Shown here one piece after another: positions 29,643-38,652 of a DNA stretch of 64,000 nucleotides (the first letter of the stretch is position 1; the number at the start of each line of letters is the position of its first letter). The notes beneath the pieces were generated by a model that was given only the letters and a program-made list of their open reading frames with translations, ran no database searches and had not been told where the DNA came from. The position numbers were made by a program, and so were the translations under genes. This DNA comes from Bacteroidales bacterium. GTDB lineage: Bacteria > Bacteroidota > Bacteroidia > Bacteroidales > UBA3663. The stretch covers positions 3,519 to 67,518 of the forward strand of contig JAZNGG010000047.1 of the NCBI GenBank assembly GCA_045576355.1, given 5' to 3'.

Positions 29643-31253
29643 ATGAAAACTATATTTAAAGCATTTCTTACCGTGGGTGTTGCTGTCTCTACGCTCTCTA
29701 TGACGAGCTGTATTGACGAGACAAACCCGACCAGCGGTGCGACTGATGAGCAACTTTCATCATCTTCTAAAGCGACTGAGGCCCTCCTCTGGGCGATGCC
29801 TGCTTACCTGAACGCCCTTATGTGGGATGGTGACTATGGCTATGACTGGGGATATGGCTCTATTCTTCACGTTCGTGACATCATGACTGAGGACATGTGT
29901 CGTATCAGCTCAGGTTATGACTGGTACTCTCGTTGGGCTGTCAATCAGTATCAGAGTGAGGATTATATCTATAATCAGTATCTCTGGAACTACTATAACA
30001 AACTCGTTCAGACTTCTAACAACGTTTGCGGCGCCCTCAATCCTGAGACAGCTTCTGACGCACAGCTCGGTTACCTCGCTGCAGGTAAGGGTTATCGTGC
30101 TATGGCTTACCTCGATATGGCTCGTATGTTTGAGTTCCTCCCGAGTGATGTAAATCCTGAGGGTCTCAATGCTGCAGGCAATTGTGTTATTAATCTTACT
30201 GTGCCGATCGTAACTGAGGCTACTACTGAAGATGAAGCTCGTCACAATCCTCGTGCTACTCGTGAGGAGATGTTTACATTCATCCTCTCTGACCTCGATT
30301 GGGCTGAGAAGTACATCGAGTTGAATCCTAACAAGGTGAAGACTTTGCCTGACTTGACTGCTATCTATGGTCTTAAGGCTCGTCTTTACATGTGGGTAGA
30401 GGATTATGTAAACGCAGAGAAGTATGCTCGTCTTGCTATCAATGCCGGTGACTACGTTCCGACTTCTAAGGCAGACTGGCTTAGCACTACTACAGGCTTC
30501 AACACACTCAATTGCTCTTCTTGGGTTTGGGGTGCGAAGGCTATGAAGGATGATGATTGCGTGAAGACCGGTATCTTGAACTGGACTTCCTGGATGTCTA
30601 ACGAGACTACTTTCGGTTATGCTGCTGCTGAACCTTTCACCATGATCGGTGCTGCTGTCTATAATCGTATCAATGACCTCGACTTCCGCAAACTCTCTTA
30701 TAAGGCACCTGAAGGACATCCTCTCGCAGGTAAAGAGCCTTATGTAGATGCAGACATCTTTGCTTCTCTTCCTGCCTATGCAGGCTTGAAGTTCCGTCCG
30801 TCTGAGGGTAACATCAGTGACTATGCCGTAGCTGCTGCTTCTGCATTCCCGTTGATGCGTATCGAGGAGATGTATCTCATCGAGGCTGAGGCTGCTGCTC
30901 ATCAGAATGCCGCTAATGGTAAGGCTCTCTTGGAGGCTTTCATGACCACTTATCGTTATCCTGAGTATGTATGTAACGTTACTGAACAGGATGCTGTCAT
31001 CGAGGAGATCGTATTCCAGAAGCGTGTTGAGCTTTGGGGTGAGGGTCAGACTTTCTATGACATCAAGCGTCTTAACTACTCTGTGGATCGTGTTTACGAA
31101 GGTTCTAACTTCCAGGCTGAGTCTAAGTTTGAGACCAATGGTCGTCCTGCTTGGATGAGCATTCCGATCGTTAAGTCAGAGAAGAATAACAACGATGCAT
31201 TGATCGACTGGGAGAACCCGGATCCGAGTGATGCATATGAAGTTAAGGAGTAA
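29643..31253 (+). CDS. SusD-family lipoprotein (PUL2)
   Basis: 536 aa. Lipobox LSMTSC, located 15 bp after susC. It has a SusD-like helical core (MRIEEMYLIEAEAAAHQN). Confidence 0.9.
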   Translation: MKTIFKAFLTVGVAVSTLSMTSCIDETNPTSGATDEQLSSSSKATEALLWAMPAYLNALMWDGDYGYDWGYGSILHVRDIMTEDMCRISSGYDWYSRWAVNQYQSEDYIYNQYLWNYYNKLVQTSNNVCGALNPETASDAQLGYLAAGKGYRAMAYLDMARMFEFLPSDVNPEGLNAAGNCVINLTVPIVTEATTEDEARHNPRATREEMFTFILSDLDWAEKYIELNPNKVKTLPDLTAIYGLKARLYMWVEDYVNAEKYARLAINAGDYVPTSKADWLSTTTGFNTLNCSSWVWGAKAMKDDDCVKTGILNWTSWMSNETTFGYAAAEPFTMIGAAVYNRINDLDFRKLSYKAPEGHPLAGKEPYVDADIFASLPAYAGLKFRPSEGNISDYAVAAASAFPLMRIEEMYLIEAEAAAHQNAANGKALLEAFMTTYRYPEYVCNVTEQDAVIEEIVFQKRVELWGEGQTFYDIKRLNYSVDRVYEGSNFQAESKFETNGRPAWMSIPIVKSEKNNNDALIDWENPDPSDAYEVKE

Positions 31254-31275
31254 TCATTTAAATTGAGAGAAAATT

Positions 31276-33219
31276 ATGAAATTATTCAATAAATTATTTG
31301 CTGCAATGTTTGTGGTGCCGATGTTCATCGGCTTCACAGCTTGCGAAGACGAGGAGGCCTCATATACACCGGCTAACCCTGAGACCGGTCATCAGGTTTA
31401 TTTCTCTGCAGAGGAGAGCGACGATGTCATCTCTTTGGCTGACGGTCAGAACTCTGTTTCTATCAGTGTTTATCGTGCAGATTCTGTCGGTGATTTGACA
31501 GTTCCTGTAACTTTGATTAACGATACACTCGGTACTTTCTCTTGTCCTTCTGAAGTAATTTTTGCTGCCGGTCAGACTGTGGCTACTTTGGAAGTATCAT
31601 TTGGTGAGATTGAGGCTGATACCGAGTATTCTTGCTCCGTAGAGTTGGGTCAATATACCAACGGCTATGGTAAGAACACTAAGACTATCACCATTAAGTA
31701 TGCTCCTTGGAGCGAGTGGGAAGAGATCGAAGGTACTCACACTTATACCTATGCTACTTATTATAGTGGTGCTGATAAGGGTGTTCATGTGTTCACTCGT
31801 GCCTCTTTGCTCAACCCGAATAATGTGCAGTATATGGTATATCTCAATGCCTATAACGATGGTACTTACTATCTCCCGATGACAATCGATTTGGATCGTT
31901 CTACAGGATATTGTAAAGTAACTCCTTTCTGGACTGGTGAAATGTATGATCCGGGTGATGGCAGTCAGATTAAAGTTATGACCGGAGATATCATTTCTGT
32001 TGTTTATGCTACAGGCTTTAATCCTCTTAAGGCTTCTGCTTTGGAAGAGTATAATAATGAGACTTGTCCAAGTACATTCAACCCCGAAACAGGTTTATTC
32101 TCTCTGTACATGATGACTTATGTAGAGGGCTTAGGATGGTTCGGTTATGATTATGAGACACTTCAGTTGGATGGTTATAAACAGTATGATTATAGTGCTA
32201 CTTTGGCTTTCCAGGGTCATTATATCGGTGCAGACAACGTAGATAGAGCTGTAGTTTCTCTTCAGTTAGGTGCTGATGTTGCTTCTTACAAGTATGCTTT
32301 TGTAAATCAAAAGTTGGGTAGCAGTAATATCTCTGCTCTTTATGAGGCTATCTCTTCCGGTAACATCGTTGATGGCGAGGGCACAGAGAGTGGTTATTTG
32401 CTCGTAGAGGCAGGTGAGGGTGATAACACCGTTGCTGTTTTGACTTATGATGCAGAAGGCAATCAGGTAGGTGAGGCTTTCGTAACCTTCGAATTCCATG
32501 CTGCCGGATCAGACTATGTAGATCCATGGGTTTCTATGGGCTATGGTCGCTTGACAGATGATATCTATTCTTCATTATTGTTCGATGGTGCTACCGATAC
32601 ATGGATTACTTATTCAGTAGAGGTGTTTGAGAACATCGAGAAACCCGGTCTCTATCGTGTCTTGAATCCGCTCAGTCCGGATGTATATCCTGTTGAAATT
32701 ACCGGAGCTACTTATCCGGAGGGTGATTTCTATATGGAGATCAATGCAGAGGATCCGGAGGGAGTATATGTTCCTTACCAGTCTCTCGGTGCCAATTGGG
32801 GCTTAGGTGAGTTCTATATCTACTCAATGGCTGCTAATTATCTTGATCAAGGCATTACTTTAGAAGAGATTAAGGCTGCAGGCTATTGCGGTACTTTGGT
32901 AGATGGAGTTATTACTTTCCCGGTTAAGGGTCTTTTGTGGACAGGTGCTGACATGGGTGGTAGCTTGTACTATGGTAACGCAGAAGGCAAATTCAAGTTG
33001 GATATGTCTAACTTGACTGCTGAACCAATTGAACCTGAAGCAGGTGCTGCTTGGTTTGCAGGTGGTAAGCCTGCAGCACGTAAAGCTGCAGCACGCGGTA
33101 CCGCTACAGACCTTAAGGCTCCTAAATCTAAGAGTAAAGTGACTTTCATGCCTTTCTCTACACGCATTAATAACTCTAAGGAGGCTTTGGATTTCGAATT
33201 GATTCCTTTCAATAAATAA
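31276..33219 (+). CDS. Surface lipoprotein of unknown function (position of SusE/F-like glycan-binding proteins)
   Basis: 647 aa. Lipobox IGFTAC followed by an acidic linker (EDEE). Third gene of the PUL2 operon. No catalytic motif recognised. Confidence 0.7.
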   Translation: MKLFNKLFAAMFVVPMFIGFTACEDEEASYTPANPETGHQVYFSAEESDDVISLADGQNSVSISVYRADSVGDLTVPVTLINDTLGTFSCPSEVIFAAGQTVATLEVSFGEIEADTEYSCSVELGQYTNGYGKNTKTITIKYAPWSEWEEIEGTHTYTYATYYSGADKGVHVFTRASLLNPNNVQYMVYLNAYNDGTYYLPMTIDLDRSTGYCKVTPFWTGEMYDPGDGSQIKVMTGDIISVVYATGFNPLKASALEEYNNETCPSTFNPETGLFSLYMMTYVEGLGWFGYDYETLQLDGYKQYDYSATLAFQGHYIGADNVDRAVVSLQLGADVASYKYAFVNQKLGSSNISALYEAISSGNIVDGEGTESGYLLVEAGEGDNTVAVLTYDAEGNQVGEAFVTFEFHAAGSDYVDPWVSMGYGRLTDDIYSSLLFDGATDTWITYSVEVFENIEKPGLYRVLNPLSPDVYPVEITGATYPEGDFYMEINAEDPEGVYVPYQSLGANWGLGEFYIYSMAANYLDQGITLEEIKAAGYCGTLVDGVITFPVKGLLWTGADMGGSLYYGNAEGKFKLDMSNLTAEPIEPEAGAAWFAGGKPAARKAAARGTATDLKAPKSKSKVTFMPFSTRINNSKEALDFELIPFNK

Positions 33220-33242
33220 GAAATCTTTTCTACAATACAATG

Positions 33243-33280
33243 ATTAAGGCTGTGCCAATCCGGTACAGCCTTAATTTTTT
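33243..33280 (+). terminator. Rho-independent terminator
   Basis: attaaggctgt (33243-33253) pairs with acagccttaat (33265-33275), with a T-run to 33280. Confidence 0.85.
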
Positions 33281-33286
33281 ATCCCT

Positions 33287-33440
33287 AACGAGCGTAGCCT
33301 CGTTCCTTCACGAGTGTAGCCTCGTTGCTTCATGAGGGTAGCCTTATTGCTTCACGAGCGTAGCCTCGTTGCCTCACGAGGGTAGCCTCGTTGCTTCACG
33401 AGCGTAGCCCCGTTGCTTCACGTGGTTGACGCGTAGTGTC
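33287..33440 (+). repeat. 22-bp tandem array, 6 good copies plus decayed copies (unit cacgagcgtagcctcgttgctt)
   Basis: Units start at 33287, 33309, 33331, 33353, 33375 and 33397, then degenerate. Each unit contains the small dyad acgag-N6-ctcgt. Confidence 0.9.
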
Positions 33441-33585
33441 CCGAGGTTGTGTCGATTGATGGATCAGTAATTTTTTTTCCAAATGTGGATACGAGGATAA
33501 GCACATTGCCCCAAGCTCCCCGATGAGGTTATAGAGTATTAATGGTATTTACTTAGAACTTTGCTAATGGTCTCTTGATTTTGGA

Positions 33586-34872
33586 TTACTCAAAGCCTTC
33601 ATCCCTTACCAACCATTCCCAAATCGGGATAACCTGTATTGTATATTCCTGTTCTTCAATGATTTCTGTTTCTTGATCTGTGATAAGAAATATATTATTA
33701 CATTTTGTAGCCTTGGCTCCTGCAATACATCCTTTGATTTCCCGTTTCCTTGTTTTTGAATTGGTGATATCATAACTTACTTGATATACTGCAAGAGTTT
33801 TGTTTCCATCGCATACCACAAAATCTGCTTCAGCACTTCTGCCTTGGTAGTAGTATATGTCTTTTTCCGTCCCGGCTTTCCTGCGCAATAATTCCAAATA
33901 TACTATTGTCTCTAATCTCCAACCTAAATTTTCTCCCGAAAAGGCATTTTCTCGTTTGTCCATAAATGAGACATCTATAGCATATGATTTTTCGCCTCTT
34001 GTTCGTATTGTACTTTTTGTCGAATATTTTTTTATGGTAGAGATCAAATATGTTTGATTCAAATATAGGAGGAAATTGCTAAGGGTTTGTTCGCTTTTTA
34101 TATTTATCGTATTTTGAAGTGTCTCCTTAACTATAATTGTAGGAGTTTCATTGAGAATATGATGTGCAAGTCTTTTCAAAGCATCAATATTGCGTATATT
34201 ATATCGTTTCTTGATGTCTTGTGTTATGATGTTGTCTATTAAAGTACTTATATATTCTTTCGGTTTCTCTTCGCCTGATATAAGTTCCGGAAAACCTCCT
34301 TGATGAAAATATTCTTCGTAGGCTTTGGATATTAACCCTCTGTTTTTTGTTGTCAATCGAGTATAATCCAATCCTTTTATCATGCACCAGTCTTTAAATG
34401 AAAAAGGAAATAACTCGATCTTATGATGTCTTCCTGTGAGATGAGATGCTAATTCGACACTCAAAAGTTTTGCATTACTACCGGTGATTAGTACATGAAT
34501 CCGTTGTCTAAGTAAACGGTTTACAAATAATGGCCATCCGTCTATATTTTGTATTTCGTCTAAAAACAGATAATCAAACTTGCCATATATTTTGTATAAA
34601 ATCTGAAGAACTTTATCCAAATCTTGAGTCCCTAACTCCTCTAAACGCTCGTCATCAAAGTTTGCATATGCAAATTGTACTTTGGCTTTTTTCAGAGCAT
34701 TAAAACAAAGAGTGGACTTCCCGCTTCGACGCACACCAATTACTACCTGGGCAAGTTTGCTTTTCAGATTTATAAAATCTTCTTCCGGTCGGTGTATCAA
34801 TACGTCTTTCCCTAAAGCTTTCAGTTCATCTTGCTGCTCGAGTAATACTTTCTCTATTTCTGTATGTTTCAT
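33586..34872 (-). CDS. AAA ATPase (AAA_14-type) with a DUF4143-like C-terminal PD-(D/E)xK-like region
   Basis: 428 aa. Walker A GVRRSGKST, Walker B YLFLDEIQ. The C-terminal AEADFVVCDGNKTLAVYQVSYD resembles a restriction-endonuclease-fold motif. The gene is AT-rich. Confidence 0.8.
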   Translation of the reverse strand: MKHTEIEKVLLEQQDELKALGKDVLIHRPEEDFINLKSKLAQVVIGVRRSGKSTLCFNALKKAKVQFAYANFDDERLEELGTQDLDKVLQILYKIYGKFDYLFLDEIQNIDGWPLFVNRLLRQRIHVLITGSNAKLLSVELASHLTGRHHKIELFPFSFKDWCMIKGLDYTRLTTKNRGLISKAYEEYFHQGGFPELISGEEKPKEYISTLIDNIITQDIKKRYNIRNIDALKRLAHHILNETPTIIVKETLQNTINIKSEQTLSNFLLYLNQTYLISTIKKYSTKSTIRTRGEKSYAIDVSFMDKRENAFSGENLGWRLETIVYLELLRRKAGTEKDIYYYQGRSAEADFVVCDGNKTLAVYQVSYDITNSKTRKREIKGCIAGAKATKCNNIFLITDQETEIIEEQEYTIQVIPIWEWLVRDEGFE

Positions 34873-34898
34873 GACGTTTTACAGTTTTATTTGTGCTG

Positions 34899-34906
34899 CA
34901 AATATA
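34899..34906 (-). promoter_or_regulatory. -7 box TAtaTTTG (minus strand) for the ATPase gene
   Basis: Plus-strand caaatata at 34899-34906, 27 bp upstream of the ATG (34872). Confidence 0.55.
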
Positions 34907-34918
34907 CAAATATTTTTT

Positions 34919-35087
34919 TCTAATTGGTATAAATTACACATTTTATGTGTTTCTAATTGGGATAAATTACATGTTTTGCCCTTTCGTAGTTGGGATAAAT
35001 TACATGTTTTGTCCTTTCCTAATTGGGATAAATTACATGTTTTGTTATTTCTTAGTTTGGATAAATTACATGTTTTACCCCTTCCCG
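34919..35087. repeat. Iteron-like array: 5 copies of a 22-bp core (ttgggataaattacatgttttg) separated by 11-12-bp pyrimidine-rich spacers (period 33 bp)
   Basis: Cores start at 34924, 34957, 34990, 35023 and 35057. The three central cores are identical and the outer two are diverged. The core contains the palindrome acatgt. Confidence 0.9.
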
Positions 35088-35139
35088 AAGTTATTAACGA
35101 TGATTGATAATGATATTCCCGACAGCAATAAAACCAATG

Positions 35140-35180
35140 AAAAAACGAATGACCAATTTGGAGCAAACCCAAATTGATCA
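35140..35180 (-). terminator. recN terminator (minus strand)
   Basis: tgaccaatttgg (35150-35161) pairs with ccaaattgatca (35169-35180) with 1 mismatch. The plus-strand A-run at 35140-35145 becomes the U-tract on the minus strand. Confidence 0.65.
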
Positions 35181-35214
35181 TTAGATTTCAGTAGGCCGAA
35201 AATTATAAGAATCT

Positions 35215-36870
35215 TTATCCCATCAACACGCGAGCATTCTCCATGGCTTGCTCTGTGAGCTGACTACCGCTCAACATACGGGCGATTTCCTCCACTCGAG
35301 CTGTAGTGTCTAAAAGAGTGAGGTGGGTAGTAGTAGCTTCCTCATCGTCAGCCTTATACACTTTATAATGTGTATCTCCTTTGCCTGCCACTTGTGGTAA
35401 GTGGGTGATGGTGATGACCTGTAGGGCTTTCGCCATCTCCTTCATCACTACCCCCATGCGATCTGCCATCTCTCCGCTTACACCTGTATCAATCTCATCA
35501 AAGATGATCGTGGGAAGAGTCTTGGCACTGGCTATGAGCGACTTGATGGCGAGCATCAGACGGCTGATCTCTCCTCCGGAGGCAATCTCTCCGGCAGGGC
35601 GGAGTGGCTGATTTTTATTGGCAGAAAAGAGGAAAGTGATGTCGTCCGCTCCGTGAGGAGTGAAGTCTGGTGTGGGAGAGATGCTGATTTCGAGGCGTAT
35701 TTTGGGCATCCCTAAATATGCTGCTTTTTCGATCAGTGCTTTTTCTAACTTGCGGGCAGCTCGGGTGCGACTTTCGGTCAATGATGCGGCACAAGTCCGG
35801 ATTTGTGATGTAAGATCGCTGATTATCCTCTCCAGTGCTGCAATCTCCTCGTCGTTGTTGTCGATGTGTTGTAATTTTTTGTCGAGTTCGTCGCGTAGCG
35901 ATATGAGTTCGCTAACCTCATGTTTGCCATGTTTTTTGAGCAGCATATAGAGAGTATCGAGTCGTTCGGTCACAGCCTCGTTGCGTTCGGGATCGAAATT
36001 TACATCGTCGGCTTTACCTGCTACTTCGTCTGCGATGTCTTTCAAGTCGATATAGTCACTCTCTAATCGGTCGGCAATTTCTCCTATCTCGGGAAGGAGA
36101 TGCTGCAGACTGTGCATGGTGTTCAGACTCTGTTTGAGACTTTGTATGACACTTTGTGTCGAACCATCCAGTAACTCAGAGACAGAGAGTAAGCCCCCTT
36201 TGATCTCTTCGGCATGACTGAGTAGAGTCTGCTCAGCTTCCAGTTCTTCTTGTTCTCCATCTTTCAGATGGGCAGCATCCAGTTGGTCAAACTGAAAGCG
36301 GAGATAATCTTGCTCACTTACGTTTTTGGCTGCCTCCTCTCGGAGTTGCTGCAGCTTGCGTTTCTCTTCGGAGAGACGTTTATATAGGTTATGGTATTGC
36401 TCTCGGATGTTGGCATTGTCGGCTAAAGTATCGACTACTTCCTGCTGAAACGAATCTTTTCCGAGCAGCAGATTTTGATGTTGGGAGTGTATGTCAATCA
36501 GCGATAGACCTAACTCTTTGAGCAGAGTGAGCTGCACCGGAGTATCGTTGATGAATGCACGAGACTTGCCGGAGGCATGAATCTCACGGCGGATGATGGT
36601 GGCAGCGGGATCATATTCGAGGTCGTTGCTCTCAAAAAAACTCTGCAACGCATATCGGGAGATGTCAAATGAAGCCTCTATGACACATTTATTTCGTCCG
36701 GTCCTGACGGTTTTGGCATCGGCTCGTCCTCCAAGGATCATGGAGAGTGCTCCCATGATGATGGATTTACCGGCACCGGTCTCTCCGGTGATGACGGTCA
36801 TCCCTTGTTTTACTTGTAGTTCCAGATGGTCTATGAGCGCGTAGTTATCGATTTGAAGAGATTGCAACAT
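35215..36870 (-). CDS. recN: DNA repair protein RecN
   Basis: 551 aa. Walker A GETGAGKS, long coiled coil, signature SGGEISRLMLA, Walker B IIFDEIDTG. Confidence 0.95.
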   Translation of the reverse strand: MLQSLQIDNYALIDHLELQVKQGMTVITGETGAGKSIIMGALSMILGGRADAKTVRTGRNKCVIEASFDISRYALQSFFESNDLEYDPAATIIRREIHASGKSRAFINDTPVQLTLLKELGLSLIDIHSQHQNLLLGKDSFQQEVVDTLADNANIREQYHNLYKRLSEEKRKLQQLREEAAKNVSEQDYLRFQFDQLDAAHLKDGEQEELEAEQTLLSHAEEIKGGLLSVSELLDGSTQSVIQSLKQSLNTMHSLQHLLPEIGEIADRLESDYIDLKDIADEVAGKADDVNFDPERNEAVTERLDTLYMLLKKHGKHEVSELISLRDELDKKLQHIDNNDEEIAALERIISDLTSQIRTCAASLTESRTRAARKLEKALIEKAAYLGMPKIRLEISISPTPDFTPHGADDITFLFSANKNQPLRPAGEIASGGEISRLMLAIKSLIASAKTLPTIIFDEIDTGVSGEMADRMGVVMKEMAKALQVITITHLPQVAGKGDTHYKVYKADDEEATTTHLTLLDTTARVEEIARMLSGSQLTEQAMENARVLMG

Positions 36871-36924
36871 GGGAGGAGAATATGATCTTGTCCGATTATA
36901 GAACTTGTTTATAAAATAATCACC

Positions 36925-37854
36925 TTATTTTTTCGTCGGTTTTTTCTTGATGTCGTTCAACCTATTGGTGTATGAGGGGAAGATGTCGCGCATCAGGTCA
37001 AACATCTCTGTCTTTTCTGTCTGTGGTGCTTTAGAATAGATATTGACAATCTCATCCAGCTTGGCATCGATGAAGAGAGTCAGCAGGACACTCTGTGGCG
37101 ATGTGCTTTTGACATTTTTGAGCAAAGGGCATGCTTTAGCCACTTCACTGCGACCGCGATCGACACTTTGGTGCATGGCATCGAGTCCTCGCCGGTGGTA
37201 GTCGTACCAAAGCTGGCGATAGTCTGCATGACTTTCTGCCAAGAGATCTGTGATGATGGCATGGCGATTACGCTTGCTGTCAAACGCTTTCCATCCTTTG
37301 TTTTCGGAACTTTGCATCTGGCTGACAATGTTTTCCGCTTTGCGGAGAAATGCCTCTCCTCCTTTAGGGGAGAAACTGTCGAAATCGACACCAAGAATGA
37401 GGTAGATGTAATAGACAACAACGGCAACCAACTCGCTCTCAGAAGGGTTGAACTCATTGAAATTGAGCGTTTGTCCCTCAGTGAACTCAAATGACACATC
37501 TCCATCCTGCAGGTTGAGCAGTGGGGAGAAGTAGTTGCTGTTATAGACCGGTCTCCGGCTCTGTATGGTGAGTGATGCCTGATAGTGGTCTGTCGATGGG
37601 ATGGAGTTGATGATGAATGCGAAAGTGCATTGGATCTTCTCTACGTTGGTAAACTGAGCTTCTGACCACGCTCGGTTATTGATAAACTCCGTAAGGTCGT
37701 TTTGCAGCGTTTCGAAACGCTCTTGATAGGCAGTTTCGATCTGCTGGGCATTGATCGTAACTGTTGCTTCCAGTTCTTGTGCTGCAACATTCATATTGGA
37801 GAAGAGTGTCACAGTAAGTATGTACAAAAGGGTCAATAGGGTGTTTCGAAACAT
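36925..37854 (-). CDS. DUF4835-like secreted protein (conserved Bacteroidota neighbour of recN)
   Basis: 309 aa. Signal peptide, then AQELEATVTINAQQIE... The family assignment is from memory of its architecture and synteny, not from a search. Confidence 0.6.
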   Translation of the reverse strand: MFRNTLLTLLYILTVTLFSNMNVAAQELEATVTINAQQIETAYQERFETLQNDLTEFINNRAWSEAQFTNVEKIQCTFAFIINSIPSTDHYQASLTIQSRRPVYNSNYFSPLLNLQDGDVSFEFTEGQTLNFNEFNPSESELVAVVVYYIYLILGVDFDSFSPKGGEAFLRKAENIVSQMQSSENKGWKAFDSKRNRHAIITDLLAESHADYRQLWYDYHRRGLDAMHQSVDRGRSEVAKACPLLKNVKSTSPQSVLLTLFIDAKLDEIVNIYSKAPQTEKTEMFDLMRDIFPSYTNRLNDIKKKPTKK

Positions 37855-37881
37855 GCTTTATGTCTTTTTGGGGTGAGGAGA

Positions 37882-38652
37882 TTATTTTCCCTGCATCATA
37901 GAGAGCCTGATCTTGGTGATGACTTTTTTAGTGCTAAGTGCAAATTTTCCCTGCATCATCCAGCTGAAATATCCGGGATCACGACGGAGAACATCTCTGA
38001 CAGCTTCGCCTTTATACTTGCCGAAATTGAAGACTTCGATGTCCTTTTCGTTATAGACAAAAGCTCCACAAGGATCTACGTTGCGACTCATTCTGCTATA
38101 TTCGGCAAGGAATGTTATATCGTTTTGCAGATCCGGATAACGATCTAATTGGGCTTGGAGCACTTCATAGGTGGCAAGAGTGTCGGCATTGGCATCGTGT
38201 GCCCCTTCCAGATTCTTATTGCAGTAAAAGAGGTAGGCTGCTGATAAGGTGCGTTGCTCCTTTTTATGGAAGATGTTTTGTACGTCGATAAATTTGCGAT
38301 TATTGATGTCGAAGTCGATGCCGGCTCGCAGCATCTCTTCGACCAGCAGCGGAACGTCGAAACGATTACTGTTATATCCACCGAAATCACAGCCCTCCAT
38401 TTCTGTTGCGATCTTTTGTGCAACTTGCTTGAAAGTCGGTTTGTCTGCTACATCTGCATCTGTGATGTGATGGATAGCCGTTGCCTGCGGTGGAATGGGC
38501 ATTTCAGGATTGATAAATAGAGTGCGGCTGATCTCCTCTCCGGAGGGCATTACCTTAAGATAACAGATTTGTACGATGCGGTCGGTAGCAACGTTGGTCC
38601 CGGTTGTCTCTAAGTCAAAAAATATGATGGGTCTTTTGAGTTGTAATTTCAT
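37882..38652 (-). CDS. DEDDh 3'-5' exonuclease (DnaQ/epsilon-like)
   Basis: 256 aa. Exo I IFFDLETTG, Exo II GYNSNRFDVPLL, Exo III HDANADT. Confidence 0.85.
   Translation of the reverse strand: MKLQLKRPIIFFDLETTGTNVATDRIVQICYLKVMPSGEEISRTLFINPEMPIPPQATAIHHITDADVADKPTFKQVAQKIATEMEGCDFGGYNSNRFDVPLLVEEMLRAGIDFDINNRKFIDVQNIFHKKEQRTLSAAYLFYCNKNLEGAHDANADTLATYEVLQAQLDRYPDLQNDITFLAEYSRMSRNVDPCGAFVYNEKDIEVFNFGKYKGEAVRDVLRRDPGYFSWMMQGKFALSTKKVITKIRLSMMQGK

Follow-up and report, generated by a model that had tools for sequence, protein, structure and literature searches.

What is an array of short direct repeats doing on the promoter of a solitary ATPase gene, and which protein reads it? The question arises from the window analysed here, a 64,000-nucleotide stretch of a Bacteroidales genome. 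We consider it likely that the array serves the gene downstream of it as a cognate operator, bound by the encoded ATPase-nuclease itself, probably for negative autoregulation. The gene belongs to the PDC-S01 family, which is reported to outnumber every other single "defence" locus in rumen genomes, with 10,358 occurrences in 6,530 genomes (PMC13356809). We found no published description of the mechanism, DNA target or regulation of PDC-S01.

The cassette gene and its product

The gene and the domains of its product lie as follows.

33586-34872, minus strand: AAA_14/DUF4143 gene of the PADLOC PDC-S01 type, predicted ATPase-nuclease (428-aa ORF; Pfam, PADLOC and AF2)
34378-34752, minus strand: AAA+ P-loop domain, residues 41-165 (Pfam, AF2 and homologue alignment)
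33979-34188, minus strand: winged helix-turn-helix, residues 229-298 (DSSP on the AF2 model)
34054-34092, minus strand: predicted recognition helix, residues 261-273 (co-change test and clade contrast)
33625-33936, minus strand: C-terminal PD-(D/E)xK-like nuclease domain, residues 313-416 (domain model and Foldseek)

In the 428-aa protein, Pfam places AAA_14 at residues 41-161 (110.6 bits versus a cut-off of 27) and, C-terminal to this ATPase, DUF4143 at residues 218-366 (58 bits versus a cut-off of 28.1). The PADLOC model PDLC04787 aligns residues 33-424 with positions 19-409 of its 412-position profile (E 1.4e-91). Both motifs picked out in a first-pass annotation of this DNA, the Walker A GVRRSGKST and the C-terminal EADFVV...YQVSY, lie within this ORF. 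The AF2 model of the whole protein (pLDDT 88.6, pTM 0.89) runs in the order AAA+ domain, lid, canonical winged helix and McrC-like nuclease domain.

Within the AAA+ domain, Walker A residues G46, K52 and S53 and Walker B residues D105-E106 show no variation in 66 homologues, and the best Foldseek matches are the archaeal AAA+ ATPase 2fna_A (4e-8), ORC subunits (2e-6) and STAND proteins. By DSSP on the AF2 model, the winged helix comprises H1 (229-242), H2 (249-256), H3 (261-273) and two wing strands (277-282 and 294-298). The specificity positions of the predicted recognition helix are E261, Q262 and S265; T263 is invariant.

Modelled alone, the C-terminal domain (pLDDT 89.1) shows a helix at 14-33, three strands, a helix at 73-90 and further strands, and by this model and Foldseek it has the alpha-beta-beta-beta-alpha-beta core fold of the PD-(D/E)xK superfamily, among whose families DUF4143 has been counted (PMC3424549). 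The nuclease-like C-terminal fold suspected in the first-pass annotation is upheld by the best Foldseek matches, to McrC (6ut7_G, E 3.5e-4; 6hz4) and then to Hjc, Card1, EcoT38I, NucS and EcoRV; a sequence search of the PDB with the protein matched nothing informative. Among the putative nuclease residues E321, D350 and Q364 are invariant and K373 is nearly so. The activity of the predicted nuclease is nevertheless uncertain, because the canonical (D/E)xK place reads Q364-V365-S366, of which Q and V do not vary; the helix that follows bears K373, which might stand in.

The box array on the promoter

Upstream of the gene's Bacteroidetes -7 box lie five phased boxes, at 34920-35070, with a period of 33 bp.

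34899-34906, minus strand: -7 promoter box TATATTTG (TAnnTTTG), Bacteroidetes-type (sequence reading)
34920-34938, minus strand: box 1, promoter-proximal, TGTAATTTATACCAATTAG, over the promoter -33 region (box registration)
34953-34971, minus strand: box 2, TGTAATTTATCCCAATTAG (box registration)
34986-35004, minus strand: box 3, TGTAATTTATCCCAACTAC (box registration)
35019-35037, minus strand: box 4, TGTAATTTATCCCAATTAG (box registration)
35052-35070, minus strand: box 5, distal, TGTAATTTATCCAAACTAA (box registration)

A five-copy array on this promoter had been described before, and both TRF (tandem array at 34917-35077, period 33 bp, 4.9 copies) and a count in the sequence bear it out; the TAtaTTTG box placed at 34899-34906 was also correct, on the minus strand. 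In the original description the repeated element was a 22-bp core. Its copies at 34957, 34990 and 35023 are identical, the copy at 35056 has two mismatches and the promoter-proximal copy (34924-34945) is degenerate; the chance expectation, from 100 shuffles of the sequence, is 0 matches. Among the three central units the core differs at 0 of 66 compared positions and the 11-bp spacer at 11 of 33. What is conserved is instead a box of 19 bp that reads TGTAATTTATCCCAATTAG in the direction of the gene, is offset from the earlier core and leaves A/T-rich spacers of 13-14 bp. The -7 box starts 32 bp past the start of the proximal box. RNA runs were searched for the locus with the transcription start in view, and none contained it.

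A genome-wide search for the core had been proposed as a check that it is not a common dispersed repeat, and it is not: at up to 3 mismatches in the 2.8-Mb genome, the 19-mer matches the array and one stray site. The core is also absent from the 60 relatives in which it was sought. The ACATGT palindrome singled out in the first-pass annotation proved incidental and is ruled out as a functional core, since it is not kept in homologues of 78-87% identity and close homologues read TGTCATT or TGCATT. Tandem promoters are ruled out too, the boxes having no TAnnTTTG and a single -7 box following the array. We likewise discarded an RNA element or mini-CRISPR, which we took to mean either an RNA-family match or repeats of about 28-37 nt separated by unique spacers no shorter than about 26 nt: the 19-bp boxes and their short spacers lie upstream of the -7 box, and the only Rfam match falls outside the box array, at 33239-33361 (E 0.77, far below threshold).

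That match covers part of a second array, at 33288-33422 (22 bp × 6.1), whose unit is a different sequence matter altogether. It has 61 genome matches at up to 3 mismatches, on contigs throughout (reversed-pattern control 0), and a scan of the genome with its 16-nt core found 43 arrays of at least two units; sought at the homologous loci, it is shared with none. The bracketing of the gene by two arrays, as first described, is therefore coincidental, the second array being an unrelated dispersed repeat. A single bracketed element comprising both arrays is ruled out, the 22-bp unit lying outside the conserved module. The window thus offers a case in which a putatively functional cis-element can be told apart from an adjoining genome-wide repeat.

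Comparison of homologous loci indicates that the box array is a family-wide feature, not peculiar to the window locus. A PWM search seeded on the window box found the closest clade only, and periodicity-anchored registration was used instead. The best upstream self-match offset (range 12-60 scanned) is 31-33 bp in 69 of 71 homologous loci, at identities of 37-87%. At offsets of 31-34, at least 14 of 16 positions match in 59/71 upstream regions, compared with 1/65 downstream controls and 1/56 distant controls, and TRF arrays with a period of 31-34 occur in 39 of the 71 upstream regions versus 6 in 415 kb elsewhere. An independent set of relatives has the same upstream periodicity. Within loci, identity is 0.79 among boxes and 0.42 among spacers; judged by sequence, the boxes are under selection relative to the spacers.

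The relation to the promoter is also kept. TAnnTTTG starts 31-34 bp from the proximal-box start in 31 homologous loci and 21 bp from it in 12 others, and no clade has a proximal box clear of the core promoter, the overlap being with either the -33 region or the spacer. Array copy number differs among strains, from 5 to 3 units. One paralogue in the same genome (on C19) shows no array, which we count against a self-operator.

Proposed reading of the boxes and mobility of the cassette

If the product reads its own boxes, the two should bear marks of each other. Co-variation was scored by contrasting clades and by testing for co-change on tree branches; simple mutual information of protein columns with box positions was tried and set aside as uninformative, because phylogeny confounds it. 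Residue 261, the first of the predicted recognition helix, co-changes with the variable box core (positions 10-15): 13 of its 14 branch changes fall on the 21 of 114 branches with a box-core change (p = 6e-11), which places it top of the 329 columns tested (next-best column 2e-5). The pairing of D261 with C11-G12 recurs in at least two lineages, as does that of N261 with G11-G12. Moreover, the two proteins with CCCAA boxes (those of the window and of locus L069, which are not sisters in the tree) are split from 15 CCGTA-box proteins by only 2 of 428 columns, Q262|R and residue 408. These patterns indicate that the boxes and the protein's DNA-reading helix evolve together, a co-variation that does not in itself prove contact.

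The same patterns bear on whether a host transcription factor or nucleoid protein occupies the boxes instead of the ATPase. AT-rich phased repeats can attract nucleoid proteins; we nonetheless regard a host factor as very improbable, because box cores vary by clade in step with residues 261 and 262 of the cassette protein. The cassette's hosts, moreover, span families and phyla, and the box is missing from the rest of the genome, the one stray match apart. The first-pass annotation had left open whether the product or a host factor binds the array; conservation, promoter phasing and co-variation favour the product and autoregulation, and the host-factor half of that suggestion is disfavoured.

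In the self-operator reading, the protein, a member of the AAA_14/DUF4143 (PDC-S01) family, would combine an AAA+ ATPase, a winged helix and a PD-(D/E)xK nuclease in one chain. Each 19-bp box would be read by the recognition helix (residues 261-273), with invariant S260, T263 and Y267 facing invariant bases T8, A9 and T16, and variable residues 261, 262 and 265 reading the variable core, positions 11-15. Because the boxes are head-to-tail direct repeats 33 bp apart, or about three helical turns, protomers would line up along a single DNA face, all pointing the same way, a geometry that would suit the ATP-dependent, head-to-tail oligomers that AAA+ proteins typically form. Straight DNA of 33 bp measures about 112 Å, which is beyond the usual spacing of AAA+ protomers, and contact between adjacent protomers would require DNA bending or an extended protomer. 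With the proximal box over the -33 region and the -7 box one period downstream, a bound proximal box would block RNA polymerase, and the potentially toxic nuclease gene would be negatively autoregulated. Binding itself, its dependence on ATP, which way regulation runs and what the nuclease does in the cell are inferred; the pointer to repression is solely the position of the proximal box.

Activation is the nearest competitor. The array might be an assembly or licensing platform on which the oligomerised protein is activated or positively autoregulated, or a decoy or sensor, titration of the protein then releasing nuclease expression or activity. Such a platform would draw on the same evidence of self-binding (periodicity, co-change and promoter phasing); three to five boxes exceed what simple repression needs, their number varies among strains as noted above, and the AAA+ fold is similar to that of the ORC and STAND switches, which assemble on ligand. 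Activation and repression would both fit the evidence, but in all clades the proximal box covers part of the core promoter, as is classic for a repressor site, and we judge the platform unlikely.

A bolder extension of the self-operator, which we put forward tentatively and with considerable doubt, is that two or three residues (261, 262 and 265 in this protein) form a code for bases 11-15 and that the array, besides being an operator, is a platform on which the ATPase-nuclease oligomerises and stays inactive. The candidate code would pair R262 with G13, Q262 with C13/A14, D261 with C11-G12 and N261 with G11-G12. Lost occupancy, upon infection or transfer to a new host, would then release expression or nuclease activity, and PDC-S01 cassettes would be self-contained AAA+ nucleases with reprogrammable DNA specificity.

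Under the self-operator reading, gene, promoter and array would move jointly as one horizontally transferred single-gene cassette, and DNA homology to the closest loci delimits a unit of that composition.

33602-35043, minus strand: transferable module of gene, promoter and array, as the extent of DNA homology to the closest loci (blastn)

Blastn against L057-L076 gives 73-77% identity from about 33602-33613 to 34965-35043 and nothing beyond on either side. As the first-pass annotation had proposed, the gene-plus-array module looks horizontally acquired, since the gene is AT-rich (34.7% GC against 43.4% for the genome), is absent at the window site in 29 genus relatives and has its nearest copies in other families. 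Cassettes occur in unrelated contexts, in hosts from many families and even phyla, and the gene has a patchy distribution, occurs in multiple copies and is deleted from one strain; the locus is present in all conspecific metagenome contigs. In the window the locus is chromosomal and adjoins a conserved exo-p309-recN block. A search for an empty site recovered none among genus relatives, which are distant (recN 56-69% identical) and have synteny broken downstream of recN; a search of the genome contigs for relatives of the PUL gene found none.

Among neighbours of homologues (n = 117; 144 Pfam families), the only recurrent family is another AAA_14/DUF4143 gene, and the 80 homologous loci have no common partner besides such paralogues, which cluster. 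The neighbours are otherwise unrelated, mostly metabolic and housekeeping genes with few defence genes, and the 25 neighbour families met most often include neither an integrase nor a transposase. Plasmids carry family members too, in 276 records.

One might ask whether the boxes are a mobility or recombination site of the cassette, with the nuclease working at the boxes of its own gene much as at a homing or transposon end. The DNA-level bounds of the module (array plus gene), its unrelated contexts across many families and even phyla, its AT-richness and absence at the site in relatives, the clustered paralogues and the plasmid records would all fit. We find this improbable, however: the boxes lie on a single side, neither a second end nor a downstream box copy was seen, no empty site was recovered, the top 25 neighbour families hold no integrase or transposase, and the constant phasing with the -7 box indicates transcription control.

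Least credible of all is the alternative offered in the first-pass annotation, that the array is a remnant of plasmid or phage iterons or of a partition site, to which we give next to no weight. Direct repeats of about 20 bp at fixed helical phase, and the distant family members on plasmids, are what would recommend it. The replication or partition reading fails on the chromosomal context, beside the exo-p309-recN block, and on the lack of any partner gene, Rep or Par included, shared by the 80 loci. The array is also held at a fixed distance from the gene's promoter, and the protein matches AAA_14 and DUF4143 only in Pfam, with no match to a Rep initiator (WH1-WH2, Rep_3 and relatives).

Comparison with known systems

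By sequence the window protein is a member of PDC-S01 (AAA_14 plus DUF4143; COG1373), a single-gene system found in great numbers in Bacteroidales of the rumen and gut (PMC13356809). PDC-S01 is a candidate defence system only; the one representative gene assayed in E. coli did not protect against T4, T5 or T7 (10.1101/2024.09.26.614923). The literature we found on DUF4143, PDC-S01 or COG1373 consists of surveys or passing mentions, and we found in it no account of a cis-element, DNA specificity or autoregulation. The family has been defined by protein models alone, to which the window adds a candidate cis-element. A conserved cognate site would be the family's first concrete molecular handle: together with the recognition-helix residues, it would supply a defined binding substrate and predicted specificity-swap mutants, and the cassette promoter and site can be annotated from sequence alone. 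It would also suggest how the gene of a potentially toxic nuclease can pass from host to host as a single-gene unit that regulates itself.

Plasmid iterons offer a formal parallel. In P1 RepA/incC, iterons overlap the repA promoter and the Rep gene is autoregulated. Shared with iterons are direct repeats of about 19-22 bp at fixed helical phase over the promoter of the gene for the binder, a putative one in the window, and private sites that evolve in step with the protein and are transferred along with its gene (binding by the window protein being read from co-variation). The period is about 21-22 bp in iterons versus 32-33 bp in the window family; furthermore, the window protein combines AAA+, winged helix and nuclease instead of being a WH1-WH2 Rep, and the window has no origin, DUE or plasmid context.

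Archaeal Orc1/Cdc6 boxes and DnaA boxes are likewise arrayed sites, often beside the gene of their own AAA+/lid/winged-helix (or HTH) protein. The AF2 model and Foldseek show the Orc1/Cdc6-type architecture of AAA+, lid and winged helix in the window protein, and a search for Cdc6/ORC membership by sequence in Pfam and NCBIfam gave no match. Unlike Orc1/Cdc6 and DnaA, it has an added C-terminal nuclease domain, and its gene is multi-copy, horizontally mobile and dispensable, with sites on a promoter and not an origin. With McrBC (AAA+ McrB and PD-(D/E)xK McrC) it shares an AAA+ motor and a McrC-like nuclease domain, whereas the window protein is one polypeptide and carries a winged helix predicted to be sequence-specific, not a modification reader.

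The C proteins of restriction-modification systems act at tandem C-boxes, two palindromic operators. The window family differs in that the predicted DNA-binding module is inside the ATPase-nuclease, in having 3-5 direct repeats as putative sites and in the lack of a methyltransferase. The likeness lies in the arrangement: a mobile nuclease gene would bring its own upstream operator, proposed in the window family, to set its expression after transfer.

The ATPase–nuclease gene and the arrays on either side of it

The region holds one intact open reading frame, encoding a 428-aa protein with AAA_14 and DUF4143 domains. As the first-pass annotation had it, the gene is AT-rich (34.7% GC compared to 43.4% for the 2.8-Mb genome), and the two motifs it named, GVRRSGKST and EADFVV...YQVSY, are both present in the protein. 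The PADLOC candidate-defence model for PDC-S01 (PDLC04787) covers the protein nearly end to end (E 1.4e-91); no NCBIfam model was found for it.

Features of the locus and of the encoded protein
33586..34872, minus strand: sole intact ORF of the region, 428 aa
34899-34906, minus (gene) strand: Bacteroidetes -7 box TATATTTG, read from the sequence
34917-35077: 33-bp array, 4.9 copies (Tandem Repeats Finder, TRF)
33288-33422: 22-bp array, 6.1 copies (TRF)
Residues 41-161: AAA_14 (Pfam, 110.6 bits)
Residues 218-366: DUF4143 (Pfam, 58 bits)
AlphaFold2 model, N-terminal end: helix
AlphaFold2 model, residues 41-165: AAA+ core
AlphaFold2 model: helical lid
AlphaFold2 model, helices 229-242, 249-256, and 261-273, wing strands 277-282 and 294-298: canonical winged helix
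AlphaFold2 model, C-terminal end: alpha/beta domain

The full-length AlphaFold2 model, built from a 66-sequence alignment, is confident (pLDDT 88.6, pTM 0.89); in Foldseek against the PDB its top match is the archaeal AAA+ ATPase 2fna, with ORC subunits and STAND proteins next. Modelled separately (pLDDT 89.1), the C-terminal domain has the nuclease-like fold predicted earlier from its motif: its best match is McrC (6ut7_G, E 3.5e-4), followed by Hjc, Card1, EcoT38I, NucS, and EcoRV, all PD-(D/E)xK nucleases, consistent with how DUF4143 has been classified (PMC3424549). The alignment shows no variation in Walker A, Walker B, E321, D350, or Q364; Q-V-S stands in place of the canonical (D/E)xK, which makes the catalytic competence of the nuclease domain uncertain.

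The phased upstream array with its -7 box, as first annotated, is borne out: besides the 33-bp periodicity, the 22-bp core occurs in three exact copies and one with two mismatches, compared to none in shuffled sequences, and a fifth, promoter-proximal copy is more degenerate. With copies registered by periodicity, the box in the window is the 19-bp TGTAATTTATCCCAATTAG in gene orientation. The ACATGT palindrome once singled out in these cores shows no conservation even in homologues of 78-87% identity.

The gene had also been described as bracketed by two arrays, and this does not hold as a description of one element. The unit of the second array, ACGAGCGTAGCCTCGTTGCTTC, contains a 6-nt loop closed by a 5-bp stem (ACGAG/CTCGT) and has 61 matches at up to three mismatches, on contigs throughout the genome, compared to 0 for a reversed-pattern control. 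A scan with its 16-nt core found 219 unit matches (28 for the control) at 104 places, of which 43 are arrays of 2-9 units; examples in other contigs of this genome are C6:6320-6452, C24:57120-57296, and C20:160-292. Although stop-free frames of at least 100 aa make up 90% of the genome, they hold 39% of these places, and metagenome contigs show 22-bp and 110-bp indels by which unit copy number differs between strains. The unit looks like a REP/BIME-like intergenic repeat family. Because the family is dispersed and this array falls outside the DNA common to homologous loci, its position beside the gene is a coincidence.

Conservation of the upstream boxes and co-variation with the protein

The comparison drew on 80 homologous loci in named genomes, with protein identities of 37-87%; most are Bacteroidales gut or rumen MAGs of several families, and a few come from bins labelled as other phyla. 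In the 200 bp before the start codon, 40 of 71 loci had their best self-match offset (range 12-60 bp) at 32 bp, 28 at 33 bp, and one at 31 bp; in the control regions, located downstream of the gene or 1.3-1.5 kb upstream, the statistic was flat. At offsets of 31-34 bp, at least 14 of 16 positions matched in 59/71 upstream regions, compared to 1/65 and 1/56 in the controls, and arrays with a 31-34-bp period were called by TRF in 39/71 upstream regions versus six in 415 kb of other flanks. A second, separate set of relatives reproduced the periodicity.

Loci carry 2-5 boxes, separated by A/T-rich spacers of 13-14 bp without sequence conservation; within a locus, identity is 0.79 among boxes compared to 0.42 among spacers. 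Box positions T1, G2, T8, A9, T10, and T16 are nearly constant across clades, while positions 11-15 are clade-dependent (CCCAA, CCGTA, GGCGT, GGAAA, CGAAG, CGCAG, TGCAT, and others). Measured from the first base of the proximal box, a perfect TAnnTTTG begins 31-34 bp downstream in 31 loci (32 bp in the window) and 21 bp downstream in 12 loci belonging to a single clade. The -7 box of Bacteroidetes promoters has a usual position relative to the transcription start; if it lies there in these loci, the proximal box would cover the -33 region or, in the 21-bp clade, the core-promoter spacer. That the array represents replication iterons, as its repeats had first suggested, is poorly supported.

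More distant relatives vary in layout. In genus relatives at 32-36% identity (L023-L026 and L029), the upstream self-match period is 41-43 bp, not 32-33 bp; both periods look like multiples of ∼10.7 bp, i.e. four or three helical turns. An AAA_14/DUF4143 paralogue in the same genome (C43:46950-48078, plus strand, 24% identity) carries two 32-bp units in an array of its own; each unit is a near-palindrome (TAATCCAAAA...TTTTGGATTA), and the array is followed by TATTTTTG. No array was seen at the third such gene, on contig C19.

In the closest clade, CCCAA cores are found in the window and locus L069, and CCGTA cores in 15 others. The proteins of these two groups are told apart by only 2 of 428 alignment columns: residue 262 (Q versus R), the second of the predicted recognition helix, and the variable residue 408. 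In the tree, the window protein is not sister to that of L069, so the association of CCCAA with Q262 either had two origins or underwent one reversion. A FastTree phylogeny of 58 proteins, with changes reconstructed by Fitch parsimony, puts changes of the box core (positions 10-15) on 21 of 114 branches, and 13 of the 14 branches on which residue 261 changes are among them (hypergeometric p = 6e-11). Among the 329 variable columns the runner-up reaches 2e-5, an internal control since one tree is common to all columns. Two pairings, D261 with C11-G12 and N261 with G11-G12, each recur in two or more separate lineages, and K265 pairs mostly with CAG at positions 13-15, with one exception. Invariant T263 and nearly invariant S260 and Y267 correspond to the invariant bases, and variable helix residues to the variable core. 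These comparisons are strong evidence that the encoded protein would read its own boxes through its winged helix; binding by a host factor, the other possibility first raised, is poorly supported.

Genomic context and dispensability of the cassette

The 19-mer is confined, at up to three mismatches, to the five array positions and one stray match in the genome, and the core was not found as an array in 60 relatives. DNA homology to the nearest loci runs from ∼33602 to 34965-35043, taking in gene, promoter, and boxes, and ends on both sides. Immediate neighbours of homologues (117 proteins, 144 Pfam families) include few matches to defence models; the only recurrent one is another AAA_14/DUF4143 gene (7/117).

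The suggestion of an acquired islet fits the genus, where nearly all of the 29 loci compared keep the exo-p309-recN block (the two exceptions are truncated or have no exo match), and neither the ATPase gene nor the PUL genes lie downstream of recN in any of them. The best in-genus homologue is 53% identical, and copies of 81-87% identity sit in MAGs of other families. Relatives at ∼34% identity or less occur on 276 plasmid records and a few phage-labelled contigs. A mobility site is one rival reading of the array. Homologues of 38-84% identity (loci L064, L086, L091, L111, L114, L124, L134, and L136) also occur in bins labelled Agathobacter, Methanomassiliicoccales, Spirochaetales, Flexilinea, Gastranaerophilales, Fibrobacter, and Victivallales; either extensive horizontal transfer between gut taxa or mis-binning of short contigs would account for this.

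Near-identical strains (metagenome contigs, runs X1 and X4) carry the locus with array alleles two units shorter, whose joints skip 66-69 bp (window 34952-35035). In one conspecific strain, a 664-bp deletion (window 34236-34899) has taken out the -7 box together with the 5′ half of the ATPase gene. These alleles show that the cassette is dispensable, that it is decaying in a part of the population, and that the length of its array is labile.

We also examined the flanks (window 29643-33219 and 35215-38652). Relatives of the SusD-like gene and the upstream 647-aa PUL gene were not detected in the genome contigs searched, nor downstream of recN in genus relatives; with exo-p309-recN conserved throughout the genus, the 3′ end of recN is a synteny breakpoint, and the PUL itself may be a recent acquisition.

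A candidate cognate operator

The best-supported reading, drawn from sequence comparison, is that the array is probably the cognate operator array of the ATPase–nuclease gene. What the sequences show is how the array is laid out and conserved, its phasing with the promoter, selection on the boxes, their co-variation with the protein, and the privacy of the site; physical binding, a role of ATP, repression over activation, and the nuclease's function are inferred. Protomers would bind the boxes head-to-tail on one DNA face at three-helical-turn spacing, and binding at the proximal box would repress the promoter of the gene itself. Such self-repression could fix the level of a possibly toxic ATPase–nuclease and let the cassette regulate itself whatever its host. 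A rival reading gives the array a platform or activation role.

The papers found on DUF4143, PDC-S01, and COG1373 are classifications, surveys, or incidental mentions, and those consulted describe no DNA site or regulation; a PDC-S01 gene tested against phage was negative (10.1101/2024.09.26.614923). That such an array is built into this very abundant ATPase–nuclease family and co-evolves with it appears not to have been described. In kind it is familiar: direct-repeat operators bound by the product of the adjacent gene are known, as are AAA+ winged-helix proteins on arrayed sites.
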